A program made the translations under genes and the position numbers. Shown here one piece after another: positions 6,493 to 39,398 of a DNA stretch of 43,984 bases. Source of the DNA: Escherichia phage UAB_Phi78; the sequence record GU595417, one strand, 5' to 3'. A model generated the notes under the pieces. It was not told where the DNA came from, did no database searches, and worked only from the letters and a program-made list of their open reading frames with translations. Numbering within the stretch: the first letter of the stretch is position 1; the number at the start of each line of letters is the position of its first letter.

Positions 6493-6903
6493 ATGCGTAA
6501 ATCATTAGCTCAAATGGTAGAGCAAGCAGGTTATACTATACATGCAGACGGTACTATCACAGGTAAGCGCGGAAATATCTTGAAGCCTTGGCTTCAGACT
6601 TCCGGCTATCAGGTTGTGAACATTGTGTTCAAGAAGGGAACAAGAACCACAACACTTGTGCATCGTATTATCGCAAGTAAATACTGCCCATGCTCAGATC
6701 AACTAGCTAATGATGTAAACCACAAGGACGGAGACAAGACCAATAACGTCTCCTCTAATCTGGAATGGATTACACGCAGACAGAACCGCAACCACTACCT
6801 TGGGTTTGAAGATTACATGACACTTACGGCAAACGATGCCCGTAGAAAGAACAATGAGCGTACTATCGCTCGTCGTAAATTACTTAAACAACTTAATAAG
6901 TGA
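6493..6903 (+). CDS. HNH homing endonuclease
   Basis: AAGGAGGT RBS; HNH-family motif VNHKDGDKTNN...NLEWIT; free-standing between the RNAP and primase genes. Confidence 0.8.
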   Translation: MRKSLAQMVEQAGYTIHADGTITGKRGNILKPWLQTSGYQVVNIVFKKGTRTTTLVHRIIASKYCPCSDQLANDVNHKDGDKTNNVSSNLEWITRRQNRNHYLGFEDYMTLTANDARRKNNERTIARRKLLKQLNK

Positions 6904-16871: not shown

Positions 16872-17871
16872 GCTACGCTCACTGTATAAAGACTCCGAGG
16901 TACTTGATGCAATAGAGCAGGCTACCGACGAGAAAGGTAATGTTAATTATAACGAGATGGCTAAGGTATTGTCTGCTCATCCGGTCGGTAAGAAGATTAC
17001 ACGACAGCTTGCTCGTTACTGGCATGGTCAATTCATGCATACCAAGAAGAATGGTGACTACTACCAGACTCTTTCTCAGGAGGATAAGCGACTCAAAGAA
17101 GCACGTAAGCTCAGGACTCCTGACCGCTATGAGGATCTGGCTATTGTACCATTGCCTGACTCGCCTCATAGAAGTGTACTGGTAATCCCTGACACTCATG
17201 CACCTTATGAACACCCAGACACCTTGGAGTTCTTGGCAGCAGTGGCGGCACGCTTCCGTCCTGATACGGTGGTGCACTTAGGTGATGAGGCAGACAAACA
17301 TGCCCTGTCATTCCACGATAGTGACCCTAACCTTGACTCCGCTGGTATGGAGTTAGAGAAGGCCCGTGTCTTCATGCACAAGCTGCACCGGATGTTTCCG
17401 GTCATGCGCCTGTGCCACTCCAACCACGGCTCTATGCACTTCCGCAAGGCAAGCGCCAAGGGTATTCCTGTCCAATACCTGCGCACCTACCGTGAAGTCT
17501 TCTTCCCGCATGGAGGCGGAGATCAGTGGGATTGGCAGCATACCCATGTTCTGGAGTTACCTAATGGAGAGCAGGTTGCATTCAAGCACCAGCCAGCAGG
17601 TTCTGTGTTAGCAGATGCGGCACATGAGCGAATGAATCTGGTGTGTGGTCACTTGCATGGCAAGATGTCAGTAGAGTATGCGCGCAACACCCATGAGCAG
17701 TATTGGGCTGTGCAAGGTGGCTGTCTTATTGATGAGTCATCTCGCGCATTTGCTTATGGACGTGAGTCCAAGTACAAGCCAGCACTAGGTTGCGTGGTGA
17801 TTGTAGAAGGTGTACCTCAGATTGTCCCAATGCAGACCAATGCAGAAGGCCGTTGGGTTGGAAAGATTTAA
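16864..17871 (+). CDS. calcineurin-like metallophosphoesterase
   Basis: Motifs DTHAP, GDEAD and SNHG. Apparent TTG start 6 nt after AGGAGG; an internal ATG start cannot be excluded. Confidence 0.65.
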   Translation: MGKLRSLYKDSEVLDAIEQATDEKGNVNYNEMAKVLSAHPVGKKITRQLARYWHGQFMHTKKNGDYYQTLSQEDKRLKEARKLRTPDRYEDLAIVPLPDSPHRSVLVIPDTHAPYEHPDTLEFLAAVAARFRPDTVVHLGDEADKHALSFHDSDPNLDSAGMELEKARVFMHKLHRMFPVMRLCHSNHGSMHFRKASAKGIPVQYLRTYREVFFPHGGGDQWDWQHTHVLELPNGEQVAFKHQPAGSVLADAAHERMNLVCGHLHGKMSVEYARNTHEQYWAVQGGCLIDESSRAFAYGRESKYKPALGCVVIVEGVPQIVPMQTNAEGRWVGKI

Positions 17872-17886
17872 GTGACACTATAGAAC
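17866..17886 (+). promoter_or_regulatory. SP6-type phage promoter (one mismatch)
   Basis: atttaagtgacactatagaac, overlapping the stop of the upstream gene. Confidence 0.85.
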
Positions 17887-17971: not shown

Positions 17972-18421
17972 ATGGCTAAATTTAAAGTAGGTGATGAAGT
18001 TAAGCGTAAAGAAGATGACTATAGTGAAGCATGGCTTGATGGATGTAGAGAGGGTAGATTCAGTCCAAACGATGTCATGGTTGTGGAAAAGGTATCAGTA
18101 TCTGGTTCTTTGATTACACTCCGAGGTGTGACTGGGGCTTGGGTTGCTGAGAGTTTTGAACTGTTTCATAAGAAGGAAGACTCTTGTGACATGGTAATGA
18201 ACCCTAAACACTATGAATTCTTCGAAGGAGTAGAGGCAATCACAATCATTGCCCGTAGCATGACCGAGAAGCAATTCGCTGGTTACTGTATGGGTAACGC
18301 TTTGAAGTATCGTCTACGTGCAGGTAAGAAGCTCAATACTGAGGAAGATCTGAAGAAAGCAGACTACTACAAAGACCTGTTCCAGAAGCATCGCCATGAA
18401 TGTATCGATGAGGATCTCTAA
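17972..18421 (+). CDS. hypothetical protein (149 aa)
   Basis: ATG 17972 with GGAGGAA RBS; the track ORF starts further upstream at 17909. Confidence 0.55.
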   Translation: MAKFKVGDEVKRKEDDYSEAWLDGCREGRFSPNDVMVVEKVSVSGSLITLRGVTGAWVAESFELFHKKEDSCDMVMNPKHYEFFEGVEAITIIARSMTEKQFAGYCMGNALKYRLRAGKKLNTEEDLKKADYYKDLFQKHRHECIDEDL

Positions 18422-19368
18422 TGAACATATTCGAATTCCTAGGACTACCTGAAGATCATCGCCCCAAACCTGTTATGCTGGTTAAGCATAGGGATGAAGT
18501 GCCAGAAAGCAAACTTACACTCCCGGTTTACGCACAGGTGAAACGGGATGGAATCTTTAGTGCTACAGTTGTGCGTTCTGATGGGACTGTAGGTGTCTTT
18601 GGTCGTACTGGTAAAAAGCTGGCTAACGTCGAACAACTGGAAGCATCTTTTACAGGTTGGCCTGCTGGTGTCTACCTAGGCGAGTTGCAGTCTATGGCTG
18701 TTGATATCTACCTTGAGGCGCTTTCAGGTGTGGTGAATCCAAACAGGACTGAGCCTCTTGACTTCATAGGCCAGCAGATTAAAGATAACTTATACATTGA
18801 CTTCTTTGACATGCTGACTATTAAGGCATTCATTGAAGGGCAGACGGATGTTACATTCTTAAAGCGATACGAAGCTCTATGTCGTAGGTTGAAGAATTGC
18901 CTTCCACCTAAGAATGCAATCCTAACTATCACACCTTGTCACACCGAGCAAGAGGTGGAGGCGTTTGCACAGAAGCACATCGATGCAGGAAGAGAAGGTG
19001 CAGTCTTCAAGTTAGACTGTGACTATGAATCTGGTCACAAAGGATTCCGACAAACCAAGATTGTACGCATGGTGTCCTATGACTTAACATGCATTGGTTG
19101 GGAAGAAGGGAAAGGTAAATACAAAGGTAAGGTAGCTAATCTTATCTTTAAATGGAAGGGTGGCAAGACAATCAAGGCTATGCTTGGTCGTGGTTGGACA
19201 CATGAAGATGCTACCCGTATGTATCACGATATTAAACACGGTGGTGAACTGAACGTCATCGGTAAGATATTCGCTGTCAAGGCACTCCAAGAATCTAGCA
19301 AGGGAGTCCTGCGACTTCCCAAGGCTGGAGAGTTACGCCATGATAAGGAGGAGCCTGATGTCTTTTGA
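18421..19368 (+). CDS. ATP-dependent DNA ligase
   Basis: Adenylation motif KRDG (VYAQVKRDGIFS); start overlaps the upstream stop. Confidence 0.85.
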   Translation: MNIFEFLGLPEDHRPKPVMLVKHRDEVPESKLTLPVYAQVKRDGIFSATVVRSDGTVGVFGRTGKKLANVEQLEASFTGWPAGVYLGELQSMAVDIYLEALSGVVNPNRTEPLDFIGQQIKDNLYIDFFDMLTIKAFIEGQTDVTFLKRYEALCRRLKNCLPPKNAILTITPCHTEQEVEAFAQKHIDAGREGAVFKLDCDYESGHKGFRQTKIVRMVSYDLTCIGWEEGKGKYKGKVANLIFKWKGGKTIKAMLGRGWTHEDATRMYHDIKHGGELNVIGKIFAVKALQESSKGVLRLPKAGELRHDKEEPDVF

Positions 19369-19555
19369 TTCAATGAAAGCGACGAAGGCAGTTGAGGTAG
19401 CAGAAGCTATCTTTGATATGCTGTCTTGTGGGATTGAAGTCCCTTATACACTTCTGTCTGATGCAGAAGATTTAGGTCTGTCTGTGGAAGCTATCCGCGA
19501 GAAAGTGGAGGAACTGTATGGCGACGACCAAGAAGAAGCCGACTATCAATATTGA
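19358..19555 (+). CDS. hypothetical acidic protein (65 aa)
   Basis: In-frame ATG 19358 with AGGAGG RBS 7 nt upstream; the track ORF starts at 19340. Confidence 0.45.
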   Translation: MSFDSMKATKAVEVAEAIFDMLSCGIEVPYTLLSDAEDLGLSVEAIREKVEELYGDDQEEADYQY

Positions 19556-19694
19556 AGGTTGGGATATGCTGGAGAATATTATCCTAGCTCCATCAAGACC
19601 TAGACCAGATAAGTCACACGAAGAGTTAGTATGGGATGAAGCCAAGCGCTATATCCTGTCTTGTATCAAGCAGCAGTTTGTGGTGCAGCCATGA
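19518..19694 (+). CDS. hypothetical protein (58 aa)
   Basis: ATG with GGAGG RBS; overlaps the neighbouring ORFs in another frame and ends in an ATGA junction with the next gene; below the track cutoff. Confidence 0.3.
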   Translation: MATTKKKPTINIEGWDMLENIILAPSRPRPDKSHEELVWDEAKRYILSCIKQQFVVQP

Positions 19695-20152
19695 TAAGAC
19701 AGGCTTGCTTCCTAGATATCCCTGAGATAATTAACTTAGGGAACAGATATGTAGAAGAGGAAGTCAAGGTAGTTAAGCACCATTCAGCTACATGGGATGC
19801 AGATCAAAGCGCACATCACCTTTGTGCATCCCTTACCAGTAAGGATTTATTCTTATGGGTGGCTGTAGAAGATGGTGTTATCATAGGGTTCCTGTGGGCG
19901 GCTGCACACATCATGGCACCTTGGTCTCCGGCACTTGTGGCTTCTGACCTACTCTTCTACATCATACCAGAAAAGCGAGGGTCTCTTGCTGGTGTGCGCT
20001 TGCTCAAAGCTTACAAGTCTTGGGCTAAGGAACGCGGCTGCATAGAGGCAAGACTGTCTATCGCATCTGGTATTAATGAGGAACGTGTTGGGCGGATGTA
20101 TAATCGATTAGGGTTTACTCCGTTCGGTACAGTGTATAACTTGAAGTTTTAA
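19691..20152 (+). CDS. GNAT-family N-acetyltransferase
   Basis: Acetyl-CoA-site-like EKRGSLAGVRLL and C-terminal MYNRLGF motif; ATG 19691 overlaps the upstream stop (the track starts at TTG 19661). Confidence 0.55.
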   Translation: MIRQACFLDIPEIINLGNRYVEEEVKVVKHHSATWDADQSAHHLCASLTSKDLFLWVAVEDGVIIGFLWAAAHIMAPWSPALVASDLLFYIIPEKRGSLAGVRLLKAYKSWAKERGCIEARLSIASGINEERVGRMYNRLGFTPFGTVYNLKF

Positions 20153-20161
20153 GGAGATAAC

Positions 20162-20371
20162 ATGGGTGTAGTTAAGAAGGCATTTCAAGCGGTAGGTCTG
20201 GCACAAAAGGCGCCTCGCATTGAGGCAGCTAAGGTTCCAGCACAGCAACTTGAGCGGCAGACTGAGGTTAAATCTGAAGACATCCAGATTGGACAAGATG
20301 ATGATGCTGCGGCATCTGCTAAAGGTAAGCGTGGACTCGTTCGTCCTGTAGCCTCTAGCTTAGGAGTTTAA
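20162..20371 (+). CDS. hypothetical protein (69 aa)
   Basis: AAGGAGATAA RBS; sits immediately upstream of the portal gene. Confidence 0.55.
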   Translation: MGVVKKAFQAVGLAQKAPRIEAAKVPAQQLERQTEVKSEDIQIGQDDDAAASAKGKRGLVRPVASSLGV

Positions 20372-20372
20372 T

Positions 20373-21920
20373 ATGCAAGACACTATACTTGAGTATGGTG
20401 GTCAGCGATCGAAGATACCTAAACTGTGGGAGAAGTTTTCTAAGAAACGCAGCCCTTACCTTGATAGGGCAAAGCATTTCGCTAAGTTAACACTCCCATA
20501 CCTGATGAACAACAAAGGAGACAATGAGACTTCGCAGAATGGCTGGCAGGGTGTAGGTGCACAAGCCACCAATCATCTAGCTAATAAGCTAGCACAAGTG
20601 TTATTCCCTGCGCAACGATCATTCTTCCGTGTTGATTTAACAGCAAAAGGTGAGAAGGTATTAGATGACCGAGGACTGAAGAAGACTCAGTTAGCAACCA
20701 TCTTCGCTCGCGTAGAAACCACTGCAATGAAGGCACTGGAGCAAAGACAGTTCCGCCCAGCCATAGTTGAAGTGTTCAAGCACTTAATCGTAGCAGGTAA
20801 TTGCCTGTTGTACAAACCAAGCAAAGGTGCGATGAGTGCAGTACCCATGCACCATTATGTAGTTAACCGTGACACTAACGGTGACTTAATGGATGTAATC
20901 CTTCTGCAAGAGAAAGCGCTACGTACATTCGACCCAGCAACACGCATGGCGATAGAAGTTGGCATGAAGGGTAAGAAATGTAAAGAGGATGATAACGTCA
21001 AGCTATACACCCATGCTCAATACGCAGGTGAAGGTTTCTGGAAGATTAACCAATCTGCTGACGACATCCCTGTAGGCAAGGAGAACCGCATCAAGGCCGA
21101 GAAGCTACCGTTCATTCCACTGACATGGAAGCGCAGTTATGGTGAGGATTGGGGCCGACCTTTAGTTGAGGATTATTCTGGTGACTTGTTTGTTATCCAG
21201 TTCTTATCCGAGGCAGTGGCCCGTGGGGCTGCGCTGATGGCTGACATCAAATACCTGATTCGCCCCGGCTCCCAAACTGATGTTGATCACTTTGTTAACT
21301 CAGGGACAGGCGAGGTAATCACAGGTGTAGAGGAAGACATTCATATTGTTCAGTTAGGCAAGTATGCAGACCTGACACCTATCAGTGCTGTGCTGGAGGT
21401 ATACACTCGACGCATCGGTGTTATCTTCATGATGGAGACCATGACACGCCGCGATGCTGAACGTGTTACTGCCGTAGAGATCCAACGCGACGCGCTTGAG
21501 ATTGAGCAGAACATGGGTGGCGTATACTCCCTGTTTGCCATGACCATGCAGACACCTATTGCTATGTGGGGCTTGCAAGAGGCTGGTGATTCCTTCACTA
21601 GTGAACTGGTAGATCCTGTGATTGTAACAGGTATTGAAGCATTAGGTCGCATGGCAGAATTGGATAAGCTGGCTAACTTTGCACAGTATATGTCCTTGCC
21701 TCAAACATGGCCTGAACCTGCACAACGTGCAATCCGGTGGGGCGACTACATGGATTGGGTACGTGGTCAGATATCTGCTGAACTCCCATTCCTCAAATCT
21801 GAGGAGGAGATGCAACAAGAGATGGCGCAGCAAGCACAGGCCCAGCAAGAGGCTATGCTTAACGAAGGTGTGGCTAAGGCTGTACCGGGTGTTATTCAAC
21901 AAGAAATGAAGGAGGGTTAA
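20373..21920 (+). CDS. head-to-tail connector (portal) protein
   Basis: 515 aa; position and size match T7 gp8; TAGGAG RBS. Confidence 0.9.
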   Translation: MQDTILEYGGQRSKIPKLWEKFSKKRSPYLDRAKHFAKLTLPYLMNNKGDNETSQNGWQGVGAQATNHLANKLAQVLFPAQRSFFRVDLTAKGEKVLDDRGLKKTQLATIFARVETTAMKALEQRQFRPAIVEVFKHLIVAGNCLLYKPSKGAMSAVPMHHYVVNRDTNGDLMDVILLQEKALRTFDPATRMAIEVGMKGKKCKEDDNVKLYTHAQYAGEGFWKINQSADDIPVGKENRIKAEKLPFIPLTWKRSYGEDWGRPLVEDYSGDLFVIQFLSEAVARGAALMADIKYLIRPGSQTDVDHFVNSGTGEVITGVEEDIHIVQLGKYADLTPISAVLEVYTRRIGVIFMMETMTRRDAERVTAVEIQRDALEIEQNMGGVYSLFAMTMQTPIAMWGLQEAGDSFTSELVDPVIVTGIEALGRMAELDKLANFAQYMSLPQTWPEPAQRAIRWGDYMDWVRGQISAELPFLKSEEEMQQEMAQQAQAQQEAMLNEGVAKAVPGVIQQEMKEG

Positions 21921-22832: not shown

Positions 22833-22853
22833 ATTTAGGTGACACTATAGAAG
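22833..22853 (+). promoter_or_regulatory. SP6-type phage promoter (consensus)
   Basis: Exact atttaggtgacactatagaag. Confidence 0.9.
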
Positions 22854-22901
22854 GGAGGTACGCCTCCCTAACATATCAACTTGATTTATAAGGAGATTCT
22901 G

Positions 22902-23198
22902 TTGGAACTGTGGCTTCCAGTTAAAGGGTATGAAGGCCGCTATTCTGTGAGTAACAGAGGTGTTGTCGTCAGCCATTTGACAGGCAAGCCACTGACACAG
23001 AGTTGTAATACCTTCGGATATAAACAAGTCAGCCTACACAAAGATGGTAAGCAAGTGAGCAAGACTGTTCATAGACTTGTAGCCGAGGTTTTCATTCCTA
23101 ACCATAATAGCTTGCCTTTCGTCAATCACAAAGATGAAGACAAGACAAACAACGACGTTAGCAACCTAGAATGGTGTACTTGTCAGTACAATACCTAG
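22902..23198 (+). CDS. HNH homing endonuclease (second copy)
   Basis: WLPVKGYEGRYSVSNRG N-terminal motif and VNHKDEDKTNNDVSNLEW HNH motif. Probable TTG start 7 nt after AAGGAG; the track starts at 22881. Confidence 0.7.
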   Translation: MELWLPVKGYEGRYSVSNRGVVVSHLTGKPLTQSCNTFGYKQVSLHKDGKQVSKTVHRLVAEVFIPNHNSLPFVNHKDEDKTNNDVSNLEWCTCQYNT

Positions 23199-23375
23199 TA
23201 TAGTTGCGCCAAAGAGTTCACATTCATATCGCCAGAAGGTAAGGTGGTTGATGTGTTTAATTTGTCTTCCTTCTGTAAAGCAAACAAACTAGATAAAGCT
23301 GCAATGCAGAAGGTGAGCGCTGGCCTACGTAAATCACACAAAGGCTGGAAGTCTACTACATAAGGAGGTTTATAC

Positions 23376-24633: not shown

Positions 24634-25374
24634 ATGCCTGTAATTCAACAATCAAGTGATGTAGGTTACATCATGTCCGATGCAAGCTTTAGCATCATTG
24701 ATAGCAAGCTAGAGGCCGTCAACCTTTGTATGCGGGCCATTGGTCGTGAGGGTGTGGATTCCCTTGACTCAGGCGACCTTGATGCTGAAGATGCGAGTAA
24801 GATGTTAGACATTGTATCCCAGCGCTTCCAGTACAATAAAGGCGGTGGTTGGTGGTTTAACCGTGAACCCAACTGGCGCATCGTGCCGGACACTAATGGT
24901 GAAGTTAATCTACCTAATAACTGCCTAGCTGTGTTGCAGTGTTATGCATTAGGTGAGCGTAAGGTTCCTATGACAATGCGTGCAGGTAAGCTGTATTCCA
25001 CATGGAACCACACGTTTGATATGAGAAGTCATGTCAACAAAGACGGTGCCATCCGTCTGACACTCCTGACTTACCTTCCTTTCGAACATCTGCCTACTAG
25101 CGTAATGCAAGCAATTGCATATCAGGCTGCGGTAGAGTTCATTGTGTCCAAGGATGCAGATAAGACCAAGTTAGCTACTCATCAGCAGATTGCAGCACAG
25201 TTATTCATTGATGTTCAATCGGAACAGATGTCTCAGAAGAGACTTAATATGTTAGTGCACAATCCGACACAGCGCCAGTTTGGTATTATGGCAGGCGGTT
25301 CGCAGAACGTACCAGCATACTCACATTCGCCTTACGATGGTTATCCACTTAAACTTTGGGAGAGTTATCGCTAA
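24634..25374 (+). CDS. tail tubular protein A
   Basis: 246 aa; TAGGAGGA RBS; position equivalent to T7 gp11. Confidence 0.8.
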   Translation: MPVIQQSSDVGYIMSDASFSIIDSKLEAVNLCMRAIGREGVDSLDSGDLDAEDASKMLDIVSQRFQYNKGGGWWFNREPNWRIVPDTNGEVNLPNNCLAVLQCYALGERKVPMTMRAGKLYSTWNHTFDMRSHVNKDGAIRLTLLTYLPFEHLPTSVMQAIAYQAAVEFIVSKDADKTKLATHQQIAAQLFIDVQSEQMSQKRLNMLVHNPTQRQFGIMAGGSQNVPAYSHSPYDGYPLKLWESYR

Positions 25375-27785
25375 TGGAAGTTCAAGGTTCTTTAGGTCGC
25401 CAGATTCAAGGCATAAGCCAGCAACCTCCAGCAGTGAGGCTAGATGGACAGTGTTCAGAAATGGTTAACATGGTGCCTGATGTAGTGGAGGGAACTAAGT
25501 CCCGCATGGGTACAACTCATATTGCCAAGCTCTTAGAGTATGGCGAAGATGACATGGCAGTGCATCATTACCGTAGAGGTGGTGAAGGTGAAGAGGAATA
25601 CTTCTTCATAATGAAGAAGGGGCAAGTACCTGAAATCTTTGACAAACAAGGCCGTAAGTGCATGGTTCAATCCCAAGACGCACCCATGATCTACCTTAGT
25701 GAGGTGACTAACCCTAGAGAGGACGTGCAGTTTATGACAATTGCAGATGTCACTTTTATGCTTAATCGCAAGAAGGTGGTTAAAGCAAGACCAGAACGTT
25801 CCCCTAAAGTAGGAAATACTGCCATTGTCTTCATGGCCTATGGTCAATATGGTACTCATTACAAAATCATTATTGACGGTGTGGTGGCCGCAGGCTACAA
25901 GACCGCTGATGGTGCCGAAGCTCACCATATTGAGACTATTAGGACGGAGAGTATAGCGTACAACCTACATCAGTCACTTCAAAGCTGGGATAAAATTGGG
26001 GATTATGAGACGCAATTGGATGGTACATCAATCTACATTACAAGGAAAGACGGCTCTACTGACTTCGATATTACCACGGAAGATGGTGCCAAAGGTAAAG
26101 ATTTGGTAGCAATCAAATATAAGGTGGCATCAACCGACCTGCTGCCTTCACGTGCGCCAGAAGGGTACAAGGTACAAGTCTGGCCTACTGGCAGTAAACC
26201 GGAATCTAGGTATTGGTTGCAAGCGGAAAAGCAGAATGGGAACATTGTCTCTTGGAAGGAGACACTAGCCGCCGATGTGTTGATAGGGTTTGATAAATCA
26301 ACTATGCCTTACATCATAGAGCGTACAGGGTTTGTCAACGGAGTCGCACAGTTTAAGATACGGCAAGGAGACTGGGAAGACCGTAAGGTAGGTGATGACC
26401 TGACTAACCCTATGCCTTCCTTCATTGATGAGGAAGTACCTCAGACATTAGGTGGTATGTTCATGGTGCAGAATCGTCTATGTGTTACTGCTGGCGAGGC
26501 TGTAATTGCAACTCGCACATCCTACTTCTTTGACTTCTTCCGGTACACTGCTGTATCTGCTGTAGCAACTGACCCTTTTGATGTATTCTCAGATGCTAGT
26601 GAGGTTTATCAGCTCAAACATGCAGTTACCTTGGATGGGTCTACTGTCTTGTTTGCAGATAAATCTCAGTTCATCCTTCCTGGTGATAAGCCTCTTGAGA
26701 AGTCAAACGTATTGCTCAAACCTGTAACCACATTTGAAGTTAACAATAATGTCAAACCTGTAGCCACAGGTGAGTCTGTAATGTTTGCTACAAGTGAAGG
26801 TGCTTATTCAGGCATAAGGGAGTTCTACACAGACTCTTATAGTGATACCAAAAAGGCGCAAGCAATAACTAGTCATGCCAATAAGCTGCTGGAAGGTAAT
26901 GTTATCATGATGTCAGCCAGTACTAATGTGAACAGATTGCTTGTCTTGACCGACAAGTACCGAAACATTATCTACTGCTATGACTGGTTGTGGCAAGGAA
27001 CCGAACGGGTACAAGCTGCATGGCATAAATGGGAGTGGCCATTAGGTACATTCATTCGTGGTATGTTCTATTCAGGGGAACACTTGTATCTGCTCATCGA
27101 ACGTGGTAGTACAGGTGTGTACCTTGAACGTATGGATATGGGTGATGCGCTTGTATATAACCTGAATGACCGCATACGTATGGACAGGCAGGCTGAACTT
27201 ATCTTTAGACATGTCAAAGCGGAAGATGTCTGGGTATCTGAGCCGTTGCCTTGGCAACCAACCGATGTGGCCTTGCTTGATTGCGTGCTGATAGACGGCT
27301 GGGATTCTTACATAGGCGGGTCTTTCTTGTTTAGCTATAATTCAAGAGATAACACCTTAACTACAACCTTTGATATGCACGATGATAACCACGTGAAAGC
27401 TAAGGTAGTAGTAGGTCAGTTATATCCTCAAGAGTTTGAACCCACACAGGTAGTCATACGTGATAACCAAGAGAGGGTGTCTTACATAGATGTACCAACA
27501 GTTGGCTTGGTTCACCTTAATCTAGACAAGTACCCTGACTTCAAGGTTGAGGTCAAGAATTTGAAGAGTGGCAAAGTGCGAAATGTATTGGCCTCTAATA
27601 GAATAGGTGGTGCCAGAAATAATATTGTTGGTTATGTAGAGCCGAGAGAAGGTGTATTCAAATTCCCACTAAGGTCTCTTAGCACCGACACAGTTTATCG
27701 TGTGATGGTAGAATCACCTCACACCTTCCAGCTTAGAGATATCGAGTGGGAAGGTTCGTACAACCCTACTAAGAGGAGAGTGTAA
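25374..27785 (+). CDS. tail tubular protein B
   Basis: About 803 aa; ATG overlaps the upstream stop (TAATG); size and position equivalent to T7 gp12. Confidence 0.85.
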   Translation: MEVQGSLGRQIQGISQQPPAVRLDGQCSEMVNMVPDVVEGTKSRMGTTHIAKLLEYGEDDMAVHHYRRGGEGEEEYFFIMKKGQVPEIFDKQGRKCMVQSQDAPMIYLSEVTNPREDVQFMTIADVTFMLNRKKVVKARPERSPKVGNTAIVFMAYGQYGTHYKIIIDGVVAAGYKTADGAEAHHIETIRTESIAYNLHQSLQSWDKIGDYETQLDGTSIYITRKDGSTDFDITTEDGAKGKDLVAIKYKVASTDLLPSRAPEGYKVQVWPTGSKPESRYWLQAEKQNGNIVSWKETLAADVLIGFDKSTMPYIIERTGFVNGVAQFKIRQGDWEDRKVGDDLTNPMPSFIDEEVPQTLGGMFMVQNRLCVTAGEAVIATRTSYFFDFFRYTAVSAVATDPFDVFSDASEVYQLKHAVTLDGSTVLFADKSQFILPGDKPLEKSNVLLKPVTTFEVNNNVKPVATGESVMFATSEGAYSGIREFYTDSYSDTKKAQAITSHANKLLEGNVIMMSASTNVNRLLVLTDKYRNIIYCYDWLWQGTERVQAAWHKWEWPLGTFIRGMFYSGEHLYLLIERGSTGVYLERMDMGDALVYNLNDRIRMDRQAELIFRHVKAEDVWVSEPLPWQPTDVALLDCVLIDGWDSYIGGSFLFSYNSRDNTLTTTFDMHDDNHVKAKVVVGQLYPQEFEPTQVVIRDNQERVSYIDVPTVGLVHLNLDKYPDFKVEVKNLKSGKVRNVLASNRIGGARNNIVGYVEPREGVFKFPLRSLSTDTVYRVMVESPHTFQLRDIEWEGSYNPTKRRV

Positions 27786-28505
27786 ATGGCAATAGGTACT
27801 GCCCTTACAGCAGGCTTGTCCAGTGTAGCAGGTAGTGCTGCATCGGGTGGCTTCCTGTCTTCGTTGGGTGGTGCTATTGGTGCAGAAGGGATAATGGGTT
27901 CTGCCATGAGTTTCTTAGGTGGAACCACTGGAGGGTTCTCTAATGCTGGTCTCCTGTCGGCAGGTATGCAAATGCTTAACCCGATAGGGGACTACTTCAC
28001 GCAGAAAGAAACAGCGAAGGCGATGAAGAAGGCACAAGAGGAGCAATGGCGTCAGCAGTTGATAGCCACAAGAGAGGCTTATGCTTCCGTGGCTAATGCT
28101 GAAAGGTCGGCCTCTAAACAATATCATTCTGAACTAATAGACAATCAGGTATCCTTATTACAGCAAAGAGCACAAGTTGCCTTACTTGCAGGTGCGAGCG
28201 GCACAGGTGGTAACTCTATCACTTCTATGCTGAATGACCTGACAGGTGAAGCTGGTAGGAACCAAGCCACCATTATTGACAACTATGAAACACAGCAGAT
28301 TAACTTTGCTAACCAACTCAAGTCTATCCAGAAGGGTGGTCAGATGATGATGCGTTCATTTGAGAAGCCGTCTGCATTCAGCGCACTAGCCAAAGGCATG
28401 TCTGGTGTAGGCGAGGCTTACCTGTCTGGTCATCAGAAAGGTACAGCACTTAGCAAGGCTTGGTCTGATTCTAGGACATATTCATCAGGAACAAGAGGAG
28501 TTTAA
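27786..28505 (+). CDS. internal virion protein
   Basis: 239 aa, Gly/Ala/Ser-rich N-terminus; AAGAGGAGAG RBS. Confidence 0.7.
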   Translation: MAIGTALTAGLSSVAGSAASGGFLSSLGGAIGAEGIMGSAMSFLGGTTGGFSNAGLLSAGMQMLNPIGDYFTQKETAKAMKKAQEEQWRQQLIATREAYASVANAERSASKQYHSELIDNQVSLLQQRAQVALLAGASGTGGNSITSMLNDLTGEAGRNQATIIDNYETQQINFANQLKSIQKGGQMMMRSFEKPSAFSALAKGMSGVGEAYLSGHQKGTALSKAWSDSRTYSSGTRGV

Positions 28506-39110: not shown

Positions 39111-39398
39111 ATGGCTAAATATGGTGAAGGTTCTGTTACTGGTCAGGCTTTTCGAGTAAAGGCAGTACAAACTATTGCAACGGCAATCCCCATGCCTGTT
39201 GTTGCTGAAGCAGACCTTAAGAAGAAAGATCACCCTATCAACATTAAACACCTATCTGGTAAGCAGAAGGGTGCGATGATTGCTGTTGAGAAAGAAGGCC
39301 CAACCCTGTATATTGCTATTGCACGTGGTAGTGAACCTACTGACCCTTGGGATACAACCACTATGGAGGGAGACCCTGTCACTCCAACAGGGGACTAA
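39111..39398 (+). CDS. hypothetical small protein, paralogue B (95 aa)
   Basis: AGAGGAGGA RBS; paralogous to the upstream gene. Confidence 0.65.
   Translation: MAKYGEGSVTGQAFRVKAVQTIATAIPMPVVAEADLKKKDHPINIKHLSGKQKGAMIAVEKEGPTLYIAIARGSEPTDPWDTTTMEGDPVTPTGD

Follow-up and report, generated by a model that had tools for sequence, protein, structure and literature searches.

Several small acetyltransferases have been described or annotated in phages. The closest relatives of the gene treated here are gp28 of phage SP6, gp27 of BP12B and gp27 of K1E, direct orthologs whose neighbouring genes and overlaps are the same. All three already carry the public annotation 'acetyltransferase', which was assigned by homology only. 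In the searchable literature we found no functional work on gp28 of SP6, K1E or K1-5 or on any member of the PHROG family phrog_1249, and no anti-defence role of a phage GNAT that would be relevant to the gp28 family.

Experimental results are available for more distant proteins. The Rac protein (gp28) of LUZ19/phiKMV is GNAT-like and triggers cleavage of the alpha subunit of the host RNA polymerase (PMC7552054). Rac requires its acetyl-CoA pocket residues, raises global lysine acetylation and is toxic when expressed alone; the cleavage is restricted to the genus Phikmvvirus, and the LKA1 homolog, which is encoded at the same position, does not cause it (PMC7552054). In P. putida Rac had no effect (PMC11794488). 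The T7 protein gp13 is needed for morphogenesis and is not kept in the virion, and HHpred relates it to acetyltransferases (PMC4819975; PMC6775973). The position of the GNAT genes in phages of the SIO1 and YeP5 type has been equated with that of T7 gene 13 (IVP-A) (Hardies et al. PMC4819975; Bischoff et al. PMC6775973). Finally, AcrVA5 is a phage GNAT that acetylates Cas12a, and LUZ19 Gp13 is an early growth-inhibiting GNAT (PMC3604761). Judged from the published descriptions, both are small single-domain phage GNATs like gp28 and show that phages make use of protein acetylation; in contrast to gp28, their genes are expressed early or serve anti-defence, and the genomic surroundings are unrelated.

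Identity and genomic setting of the acetyltransferase gene

The window, that is, the whole stretch of DNA analysed (43,984 bases, phage UAB_Phi78), is the complete genome of an SP6-like Salmonella podophage (Zindervirus, Autographiviridae). Gene calling yielded the canonical SP6 order. The early region, which includes an Ocr-like gene, is followed by the genes for RNA polymerase, replication, ligase, portal and scaffold, and then by those for capsid, tail tube A and B, internal virion proteins, terminase and tailspike. Between 19300 and 20400, the identity amounts to 99.9% with phages BP12B and GRNsp03 and to 95.8% with SP6. This region contains, or adjoins, the following genes:

18421-19368, plus strand: ATP-dependent DNA ligase gene (Pfam DNA_ligase_OB_2 and DNA_ligase_A_M; phrog_114)
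19358-19555, plus strand: small ORF of 65 aa, SP6 gp26-like (phrog_5860), with an AAGGAGG Shine-Dalgarno (SD) sequence
19518-19694, plus strand: small ORF of 58 aa, SP6 gp27-like (phrog_6507), with a GGAGG SD sequence
19691-20152, plus strand: GNAT acetyltransferase gene, 153 aa, ATG start, ortholog of SP6 gp28 and BP12B gp27
20162-20371, plus strand: gp29, 69 aa, T7 gp7.3 homolog (phrog_9033 at 9e-16, phrog_1320 at 6e-11)
20373-21920, plus strand: portal (head-tail connector) gene, annotated as SP6 gp30 and BP12B gp29

After a shift of 676 nt, all window coordinates agreed with the BP12B annotation. The acetyltransferase is an already known gene (SP6 gp28, BP12B gp27), and its product is called gp28 in the following. 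The UAB_Phi78 protein is 99.3% identical to SP6 gp28 and BP12B gp27 and 100% identical to the GRNsp51 protein; it differs from SP6 gp28 by one amino acid and in nothing else of substance. The proteins of the K1E group, including the annotated K1E gp27, are about 75% identical to gp28. At the nucleotide level, the gene and its SP6 counterpart differ by 20 synonymous changes and one non-synonymous change, which corresponds to a pN/pS of 0.015. The values for the portal and ligase genes, also against SP6, are 0.015 and 0.061, respectively. As its pN/pS is the same as that of the portal gene, 19691-20152 is not a chance ORF. It is the known GNAT gene of the SP6 group, real and under constraint, and its product is predicted from sequence and model to be catalytic.

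An earlier note, made from the sequence alone, had proposed a GNAT gene between the ligase and portal genes. The GNAT assignment was borne out by the Pfam profiles, PHROG 1249, a structural model and its structural neighbours, all described below. The coordinates confirmed the order of the three genes, with the correction that a 69-codon gp7.3-like gene (20162-20371) precedes the portal gene. The description of the gene as lying 'among DNA-metabolism genes' understates the context, which comprises a transcript shared with portal and scaffold and a conserved position equivalent to that of T7 gene 7.

Transcription and translation of the gene

A pattern search of the window revealed nine SP6-type promoters, compared with zero expected. 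Two of them delimit the transcription unit of the GNAT gene:

17866-17886, plus strand: SP6-type phage promoter with two mismatches to the consensus, at the head of the GNAT transcription unit
22833-22853, plus strand: the following SP6 promoter, a perfect match to the consensus, situated after the scaffold gene

The unit that starts at 17866 comprises the genes for a DUF3310 "nucleotide kinase", ligase, gp26, gp27, the GNAT, gp29, portal and scaffold. Between the promoters at 17866 and 22833 we found no promoter and no convincing terminator, and sigma-70 promoters or terminators separating the GNAT gene from the structural genes did not occur above the shuffled expectation. Because the unit is unbroken up to 22833, the GNAT would be made by the phage polymerase alongside the first morphogenetic proteins.

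The two small ORFs upstream of the GNAT gene, which the earlier note had also listed, were recovered at 19358-19555 and 19518-19694. The first starts within the end of the ligase gene, with an overlap of 11 nt, and the second overlaps the first by 38 nt. Within this 38-nt overlap there is an indel of 3 nt relative to SP6 that keeps both frames, which supports the view that both small ORFs are real. Their families, phrog_5860 and phrog_6507, are conserved in phages and have no assigned function. The TGA of the second ORF overlaps the ATG of the GNAT gene in the sequence ATGA, and the GNAT gene lacks a good SD sequence, whereas nearly every other gene of the window has one. Translational coupling of the GNAT gene to both small ORFs had been proposed; on the basis of the ATGA overlap and the lack of a good SD sequence, it is plausible for the last junction, between 19518-19694 and the GNAT gene. 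A stop/start overlap with an upstream small ORF also exists in phi-A318, uligo, Atu_ph02, LIMEzero, LUZ19 and KNP. Homology of gp27 to LUZ19 gp27 and its counterparts was considered and rejected: a common motif could be recognised by eye, but the E-values were only 0.35-0.5. At these E-values, HMMs from non-Molineuxvirinae proteins placed gp27 in first or second rank out of the 711 ORFs in the window.

Predicted fold and active site

Two Pfam acetyltransferase profiles matched gp28 above their cut-offs, namely PF00583 Acetyltransf_1 (32.4 bits, cut-off 20.7) and PF13508 Acetyltransf_7 (31.3 bits, cut-off 27). PHROG 1249 'acetyltransferase' matched over the full length (HMM match, residues 1-151, E=6e-52), and it was also matched by all of 14 diverse gp28 relatives. 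An AlphaFold2 model, for which 25 homologs were used as input, had a mean pLDDT of 91.2 and a pTM of 0.86. Its topology, b1-a1-a2-b2-b3-b4-a3-b5-a4-b6-b7, is the textbook GNAT order, and the b5-a4-b6 half that binds the cofactor is complete. A Foldseek comparison of the model with the PDB gave 670 matches at E<=1e-3; all 50 of those listed were GNATs, with TM-scores of up to 0.80. Together, profiles and model allow gp28 to be identified with high confidence as the product of a GNAT enzyme gene.

Two motifs of the predicted active site were located in the gene:

19967-19993, plus strand: b4-a3 loop, GNAT motif A, predicted to bind the acetyl-CoA pyrophosphate; codons 93-101, P-E-K-R-G-S-L-A-G, aligned to the 'RGxxxG' loop of solved GNATs
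20099-20116, plus strand: a4/b6 motif B with the candidate general acid Tyr137; codons 137-142, Y-N-R-L-G-F, aligned with '...LYKALG' of diamine acetyltransferase 2 (2bei)

Conservation was analysed in 14 diverse family members with identities down to about 27%. Arg96 was present in all 14 and Gly97 in 13, and position 101 was Gly, Ala or Ser throughout; residue 86 was acidic in 13 of the 14, position 137 was Tyr in 12 and Phe in the other two, and Gly141 was invariant. In an HMMER alignment, Asp86 and Tyr137 of gp28 fall on a Glu and a Tyr of human diamine acetyltransferase 2 (2bei), which we take to be the general base and the general acid of this SSAT-type enzyme. The motif A of gp28 reads R96-G97-S-L-A-G101, so that Leu stands where the textbook Q/R-x-x-G-x-G/A motif has its central Gly (Leu or variable in the family). 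The solved GNAT 3lod likewise lacks the central Gly. Judged from the conserved residues and the model, gp28 is very probably an active acetyl-CoA-dependent transferase.

The search of the gp28 sequence against solved structures gave a best E-value of 0.019, and thus no match at E<0.01. Among the structural neighbours, which are 12-23% identical, protein and small-molecule acetyltransferases are interleaved. With no closer neighbour in structure or sequence, no substrate assignment can be transferred to gp28. One alternative is that gp28 acetylates a small molecule, e.g. a polyamine, a toxin of the aminoglycoside-like or amino-acid analogue type, or a nucleotide-derived immune signal, and serves a metabolic or anti-defence purpose. 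Indeed, the top neighbours include the polyamine acetyltransferase DpA, SSAT2, phosphinothricin/ArsN acetyltransferases and AAC(6')/AAC(3), and one gp28 relative is annotated as 'aminoglycoside acetyltransferase'. However, acetyltransferases of protein N-termini and histones (Ard1, Naa10/30/50/60, RimI and Hpa2) are equally found among the neighbours, so that no subfamily is indicated, and the fixed place of the gene in the virion-gene modules of two podophage architectures (see below) would be unexpected for a metabolic or anti-defence accessory gene. We consider a small-molecule substrate improbable.

Conserved position upstream of the portal gene

A tblastn search retrieved gp28-type relatives from 242 phage records, nearly all of them of Autographiviridae-type podophages. 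The hosts include Escherichia, Klebsiella, Salmonella, Proteus, Erwinia and Pectobacterium, and also Vibrio, Pseudomonas, Aeromonas, Shewanella and Agrobacterium. In a library clustered at 50% identity, 214 clusters belonged to the gp28 family at E<=1e-30. The gene family is thus among the most widely conserved genes without an assigned role in phages of the T7 supergroup.

The order small ORF, GNAT, small protein and portal was found in every gp28-type Autographiviridae locus examined, i.e. in SP6 and phiEa1H (Molineuxvirinae), phi-A318 and uligo (Colwellvirinae) and Atu_ph02. In these five phages and in LUZ19, Axy23, LIMEzero, phiB1_1, MR8 and KNP, the small protein of the block is gp7.3-like. 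A GNAT gene that directly precedes a gp7.3-like gene and the portal gene, which is the position of T7 'gene 7', occurs in at least five Autographiviridae lineages. The family assignment of the gp7.3-like protein is based on phrog_1320, which is matched by T7 gp7.3 at 1e-29 and by gp29 of the window at the E-value given above, and a C-terminal motif, GKRxL...LG(I/V), is common to gp29, T7 gp7.3 and LUZ19 gp29. The N-termini of gp7.3-type proteins are rich in Lys. T7 gp7.3 is listed as a 'host range and adsorption' or virion assembly protein.

Comparison with Rac of LUZ19

LUZ19 Rac resembles gp28 in several respects: it has about 150 aa, is GNAT-derived, and is encoded directly before a gp7.3-like protein and the portal, and the start of its gene overlaps an upstream small ORF. 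A profile-profile comparison of the two families gave a probability of 94.5% (E=7.5e-8) over 102 columns, and phrog_1249 was matched by five of six Rac-family proteins, for which it was the best PHROG apart from their own. In contrast, BLASTP revealed no similarity between gp28 and Rac (E=2.2), and the Rac family phrog_3986 was not matched at E<=0.01 by gp28 or any of 13 relatives. Membership of gp28 in the Rac family by sequence was therefore rejected, as profile methods alone connect the two. The proteins also differ in structure: in Rac-type proteins helix a4 is replaced by a b-hairpin, whereas gp28 keeps a4, and the D-x-H-V-G motif of Rac-type proteins is missing from gp28. In view of the missing reciprocal PHROG match, we treat gp28 (phrog_1249) and Rac (phrog_3986) as distant homologs in a shared position, and not as one family. 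Rac-type relatives were found in 209 records, including T7-like Ghunavirus phages, in which the order is gp6.7, Rac-like protein, gp7.3 and portal.

This relationship is the basis for the main rival to a role of gp28 in virion assembly. Like Rac, gp28 could acetylate host proteins in the middle to late phase of infection, for example proteins of transcription, a protease or metabolic enzymes. The shared position and the profile match both favour such a host takeover function, and so does the dependence of Rac on its acetyl-CoA pocket together with the rise in lysine acetylation. The sole experiment on a protein encoded at the gene 7 position also points to the host (PMC7552054). Moreover, none of ten scanned small or early proteins matched a family with the annotation of host RNA polymerase inhibitor or kinase, although several of these proteins have no assigned function. 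On the other hand, cleavage of the alpha subunit is specific for Phikmvvirus and does not extend to the LKA1 homolog (PMC7552054), Rac is inert in P. putida (PMC11794488), and the sequence-level and helix a4 differences separate the two proteins. The gp28 gene also belongs to the late genes, is tied to the structural module and evolves very slowly, unlike typical host-takeover genes. Overall, acetylation of host proteins by gp28 seems somewhat less likely than a role in virion assembly.

The gene 7 protein of T7

In T7 the position of the GNAT gene is occupied by gene 7, in the order gp6.7, gp7, gp7.3, an HNH gene (7.7) and portal. T7 gp7 is annotated only as 'host range', belongs to phrog_2746, and had no match in Pfam. 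Its AlphaFold2 model (pLDDT 88.9) has the GNAT topology minus a4, and all 50 matches listed in the comparison with the PDB were GNATs. A GNAT fold is thus predicted for T7 gp7, and we found no report of it in the searchable literature. The predicted fold ties a classical 'host range' gene to the gp28 family. The sequence connection runs via Rac: four of six Rac-family proteins matched phrog_2746 (best E=3e-8), and the corresponding profile comparison gave E=5e-4. In contrast, gp28 and its relatives did not match phrog_2746, and hhalign gave a probability of at most 9% for the T7 gp7 family against the gp28 family. Because Arg-Gly in motif A is replaced by Asp-Ser, T7 gp7 is probably not catalytic.

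GNATs at the gene 13 position

The closest gp28 relatives outside the Autographiviridae were found in YeP5 (31% identity, E=2e-12), SIO1 (gp26.2; 27%, E=3e-7) and metagenomic podophages. All belong to phrog_1249, and the SIO1 and YeP5 matches were full-length. In these phages the GNAT gene lies between the gene for a tail (nozzle-like) protein and an internal-virion-protein gene. As with gp28, the GNAT genes of SIO1 and YeP5 are situated directly upstream of the gene for a small internal or ejected virion protein; unlike gp28, the GNATs of SIO1, cobaviruses and the YeP5 type are not encoded before the portal. The gp28 family thus always adjoins genes whose protein products enter the cell by ejection. 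The equivalent region of the window contains two genes:

25374-27785: tail tubular B, abutting IVP-B
27786-28505: IVP-B, gp14-type (phrog_805)

No gene lies between the two in the window, which therefore has no gene-13 equivalent at this place, and the GNAT gene is located 5.2 kb upstream. LUZ19, phi-A318 and Atu_ph02 have a small gene (168-201 aa) directly after tail tubular B; it is annotated as 'internal virion protein' in LUZ19 and phi-A318 and as 'hypothetical protein' in Atu_ph02.

The Studiervirinae possess gp13 (1,197 records), and T7 gp13 matched only phrog_308 (DUF2833). When the gp13 and gp28 families were compared by hhalign, the probability was 27.8%, over 17 N-terminal columns only. 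T7 gp13 was tried as a direct gp28 homolog, but this relationship could not be established, as the match was restricted to 16-17 N-terminal columns both with the single sequence and with an alignment of seven family members. A strict complementarity between GNATs at the gene 7 position and proteins at the gene 13 position was also rejected: in Ghunavirus phages and in T7, a gene-7-position protein occurs together with gp13, and a simple model of a relocated IVP-A fails for this reason.

The gp13 family, like T7 gp7, lacks the Arg-Gly of motif A. Both are GNAT-like, according to the model of gp7 and the HHpred result for gp13 (PMC4819975), and both have probably lost catalysis. By analogy, gp28 could be a non-catalytic pseudoenzyme or chaperone whose GNAT fold has no task beyond that of a scaffold for assembly. 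The same is suspected of T7 gp13 and gp7, and the Leu in place of the central Gly of motif A in gp28 would fit this idea. However, the Arg96-Gly97...Gly/Ala101 loop, Tyr137 and Gly141 are kept in members down to about 27% identity, the cofactor-binding half is complete in the model, and solved GNATs such as 3lod also dispense with the central Gly. A non-catalytic gp28 therefore appears quite improbable. Both this reading and that of a small-molecule substrate are less likely than either an assembly function or a Rac-like function.

A possible role in the ejection-protein and virion-assembly module

Our preferred reading, to which we assign a probability of roughly 0.4, is that gp28 is a GNAT that acts on a protein of the ejection-protein and virion-assembly module. 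In detail, gp28 would be an active acetyl-CoA-dependent acetyltransferase with a protein, not a small molecule, as its target, and its conserved task would be tied to this module. The likeliest substrates would be the Lys-rich gp7.3-like gp29, internal virion proteins, or both; naming the gp7.3-type proteins on account of their Lys-rich N-termini is speculation. Then gp28 could be the counterpart in the SP6 group of the morphogenesis and infectivity factors that T7 encodes at the positions of gene 7 and gene 13 (IVP-A).

Four lines of evidence argue for an assembly-linked substrate, which we regard as tentative. First, the gene is fixed beside genes for ejected proteins in two podophage architectures, which favours a substrate intrinsic to the phage. 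Second, it is conserved across hosts ranging from Salmonella to Vibrio, Pseudomonas and Agrobacterium, which also favours a phage-intrinsic over a host-specific substrate. Third, the gene evolves as slowly as the portal gene. Fourth, virion and infectivity phenotypes are associated with the T7 proteins that are connected with gp28, namely gp7, connected through its position, and gp13, connected through the literature. The earlier note had named host proteins or small molecules as targets of phage GNATs; this is only one live option, and a role in virion assembly is at least as likely.

Some observations point away from the preferred reading. LUZ19 Rac, the only characterised protein at the gene 7 position, acts on the host (PMC7552054). 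The short N-terminal alignment of the gp13 and gp28 families, and the presence of both a gene-7-position protein and gp13 in Ghunavirus phages and T7, speak against an assembly function. The structural neighbours do not favour protein over small-molecule acetyltransferases, which weighs against a protein substrate, and the Leu at the central Gly position of motif A also counts against the reading as a whole.

Compared with the known annotation, the conserved position, the link to Rac, the link to GNATs at the IVP-A position and the predicted fold of T7 gp7 are added here. This context yields a testable hypothesis, not a discovery. SP6-like, K1E-like and Klebsiella phages with a gp28-type gene are used in phage therapy and biocontrol, and the alternative of a virion or a host target bears both on engineering, i.e. 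on whether the gene is dispensable, and on the initiation of podophage infection.

A wider scenario can be formulated, which we consider unlikely when taken as a whole. The GNAT encoded before the portal would be an ancestral enzyme of the podophage ejection module that acetylates Lys-rich ejected proteins, both gp7.3-like and internal virion proteins, for assembly or ejection. The SP6-type proteins would still be catalytic, T7 gp7 and gp13 would be degenerate, non-catalytic descendants, and Rac would affect RNA polymerase through a side activity peculiar to its lineage. If true, this would provide a biochemical explanation for T7 genes 7 and 13, which are known by phenotype only.

Predicted acetyltransferase fold of the T7 gene 7 product

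In T7, the position of the GNAT gene (SP6 gp28-type acetyltransferase) is occupied by gene 7 (T7 locus L016, 1631-2032, outside the window), which is annotated solely as 'host range' and whose product had no Pfam match. The AF2 model of T7 gp7 showed a GNAT fold without helix a4 (pLDDT 88.9), and among the 50 matches listed in a Foldseek comparison of this model with the PDB, all 50 were GNATs. In addition, HMM matches connected T7 gp7 with the Rac family, which comprises relatives of the GNAT-like LUZ19 gp28. In motif A, the acetyl-CoA pyrophosphate-binding loop, T7 gp7 has Asp-Ser in place of Arg-Gly. T7 gp7 is predicted, on the basis of the structural model, to be a GNAT-fold protein that lacks a4. 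The literature that could be searched yielded no prior report of this fold.

Among the relatives of the GNAT family from metagenomes, a few were 318-385 aa long and contained two matched stretches (L019:4001-4957; P0065, P0066, P0136). Therefore, they may represent tandem or fused GNATs. One long metagenomic relative adjoins the gene of a giant cadherin/Big_9-repeat protein.

Small ORFs upstream of the acetyltransferase gene

The small ORFs directly upstream of the GNAT gene in the window and in four comparison loci from other phages, and the overlap of the first with its neighbor, are as follows:

Window 19518-19694, gp27-like ORF
L003:7284-7535, small ORF
L005:2295-2495, small ORF
L008:2166-2363, small ORF
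L012:2209-2421, small ORF
Window 19518-19555, 38-nt overlap in which the gp26-like ORF ends and the gp27-like ORF starts

Compared with the SP6 reference, the overlap carries a 3-nt insertion, which adds one codon in each of the two reading frames (…DDQEEADYQY and MATTKKKPT…), and therefore both ORFs are intact. A loosely defined motif, P-x-T-x-E-E-[VIL]-x-[WFY]-x-[AS]-[GA]-x-[RQ], was common to the GNAT-upstream small ORFs of SP6-like, Colwellvirinae, Atuphduovirus, and Krylovirinae phages. HMM tests of their relationship against all window ORFs were non-significant (E=0.35-0.5).

Further genes of the window

Other features of the window are as follows:

1838-2194, Ocr-like anti-restriction gene, early region (phrog_2568, E=3e-51)
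6493-6903, HNH endonuclease gene, just 3' of the RNA polymerase gene (phrog_959)
22902-23363, HNH homing-endonuclease gene, flanked by the genes for the scaffold and the major capsid protein, premature stop at 23196-23198
25374-27785, tail tubular protein B gene
27786-28505, internal virion protein B gene, gp14-type (phrog_805)
39111-39398, 95-codon ORF, K1E gp42 homolog

Scanning of ten small or early window proteins yielded no matches to families that carry the annotation host RNA polymerase inhibitor or kinase. The HNH gene between scaffold and capsid is also present in BP12B, whereas it is lacking in SP6. At position 23196 the window has TAA instead of the GAA of BP12B, which splits the gene into ORFs 22881-23198 and 23244-23363; this copy may therefore represent a pseudogene or else a sequencing variant.

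The UAB_Phi78 counterpart of ORF 39111-39398 has been named 'putative acetyl-CoA acetyltransferase' (PMC4837284), which looks like an over-annotation because the product has only 95 aa.

The genes of tail tubular protein B and internal virion protein B abut, and no equivalent of T7 gene 13 (IVP-A) lies between them (25374-28505). Likewise, a small gene comes directly after tail tubular B in LUZ19 and phi-A318, where it is annotated 'internal virion protein', and in Atu_ph02, where it is annotated 'hypothetical protein'.
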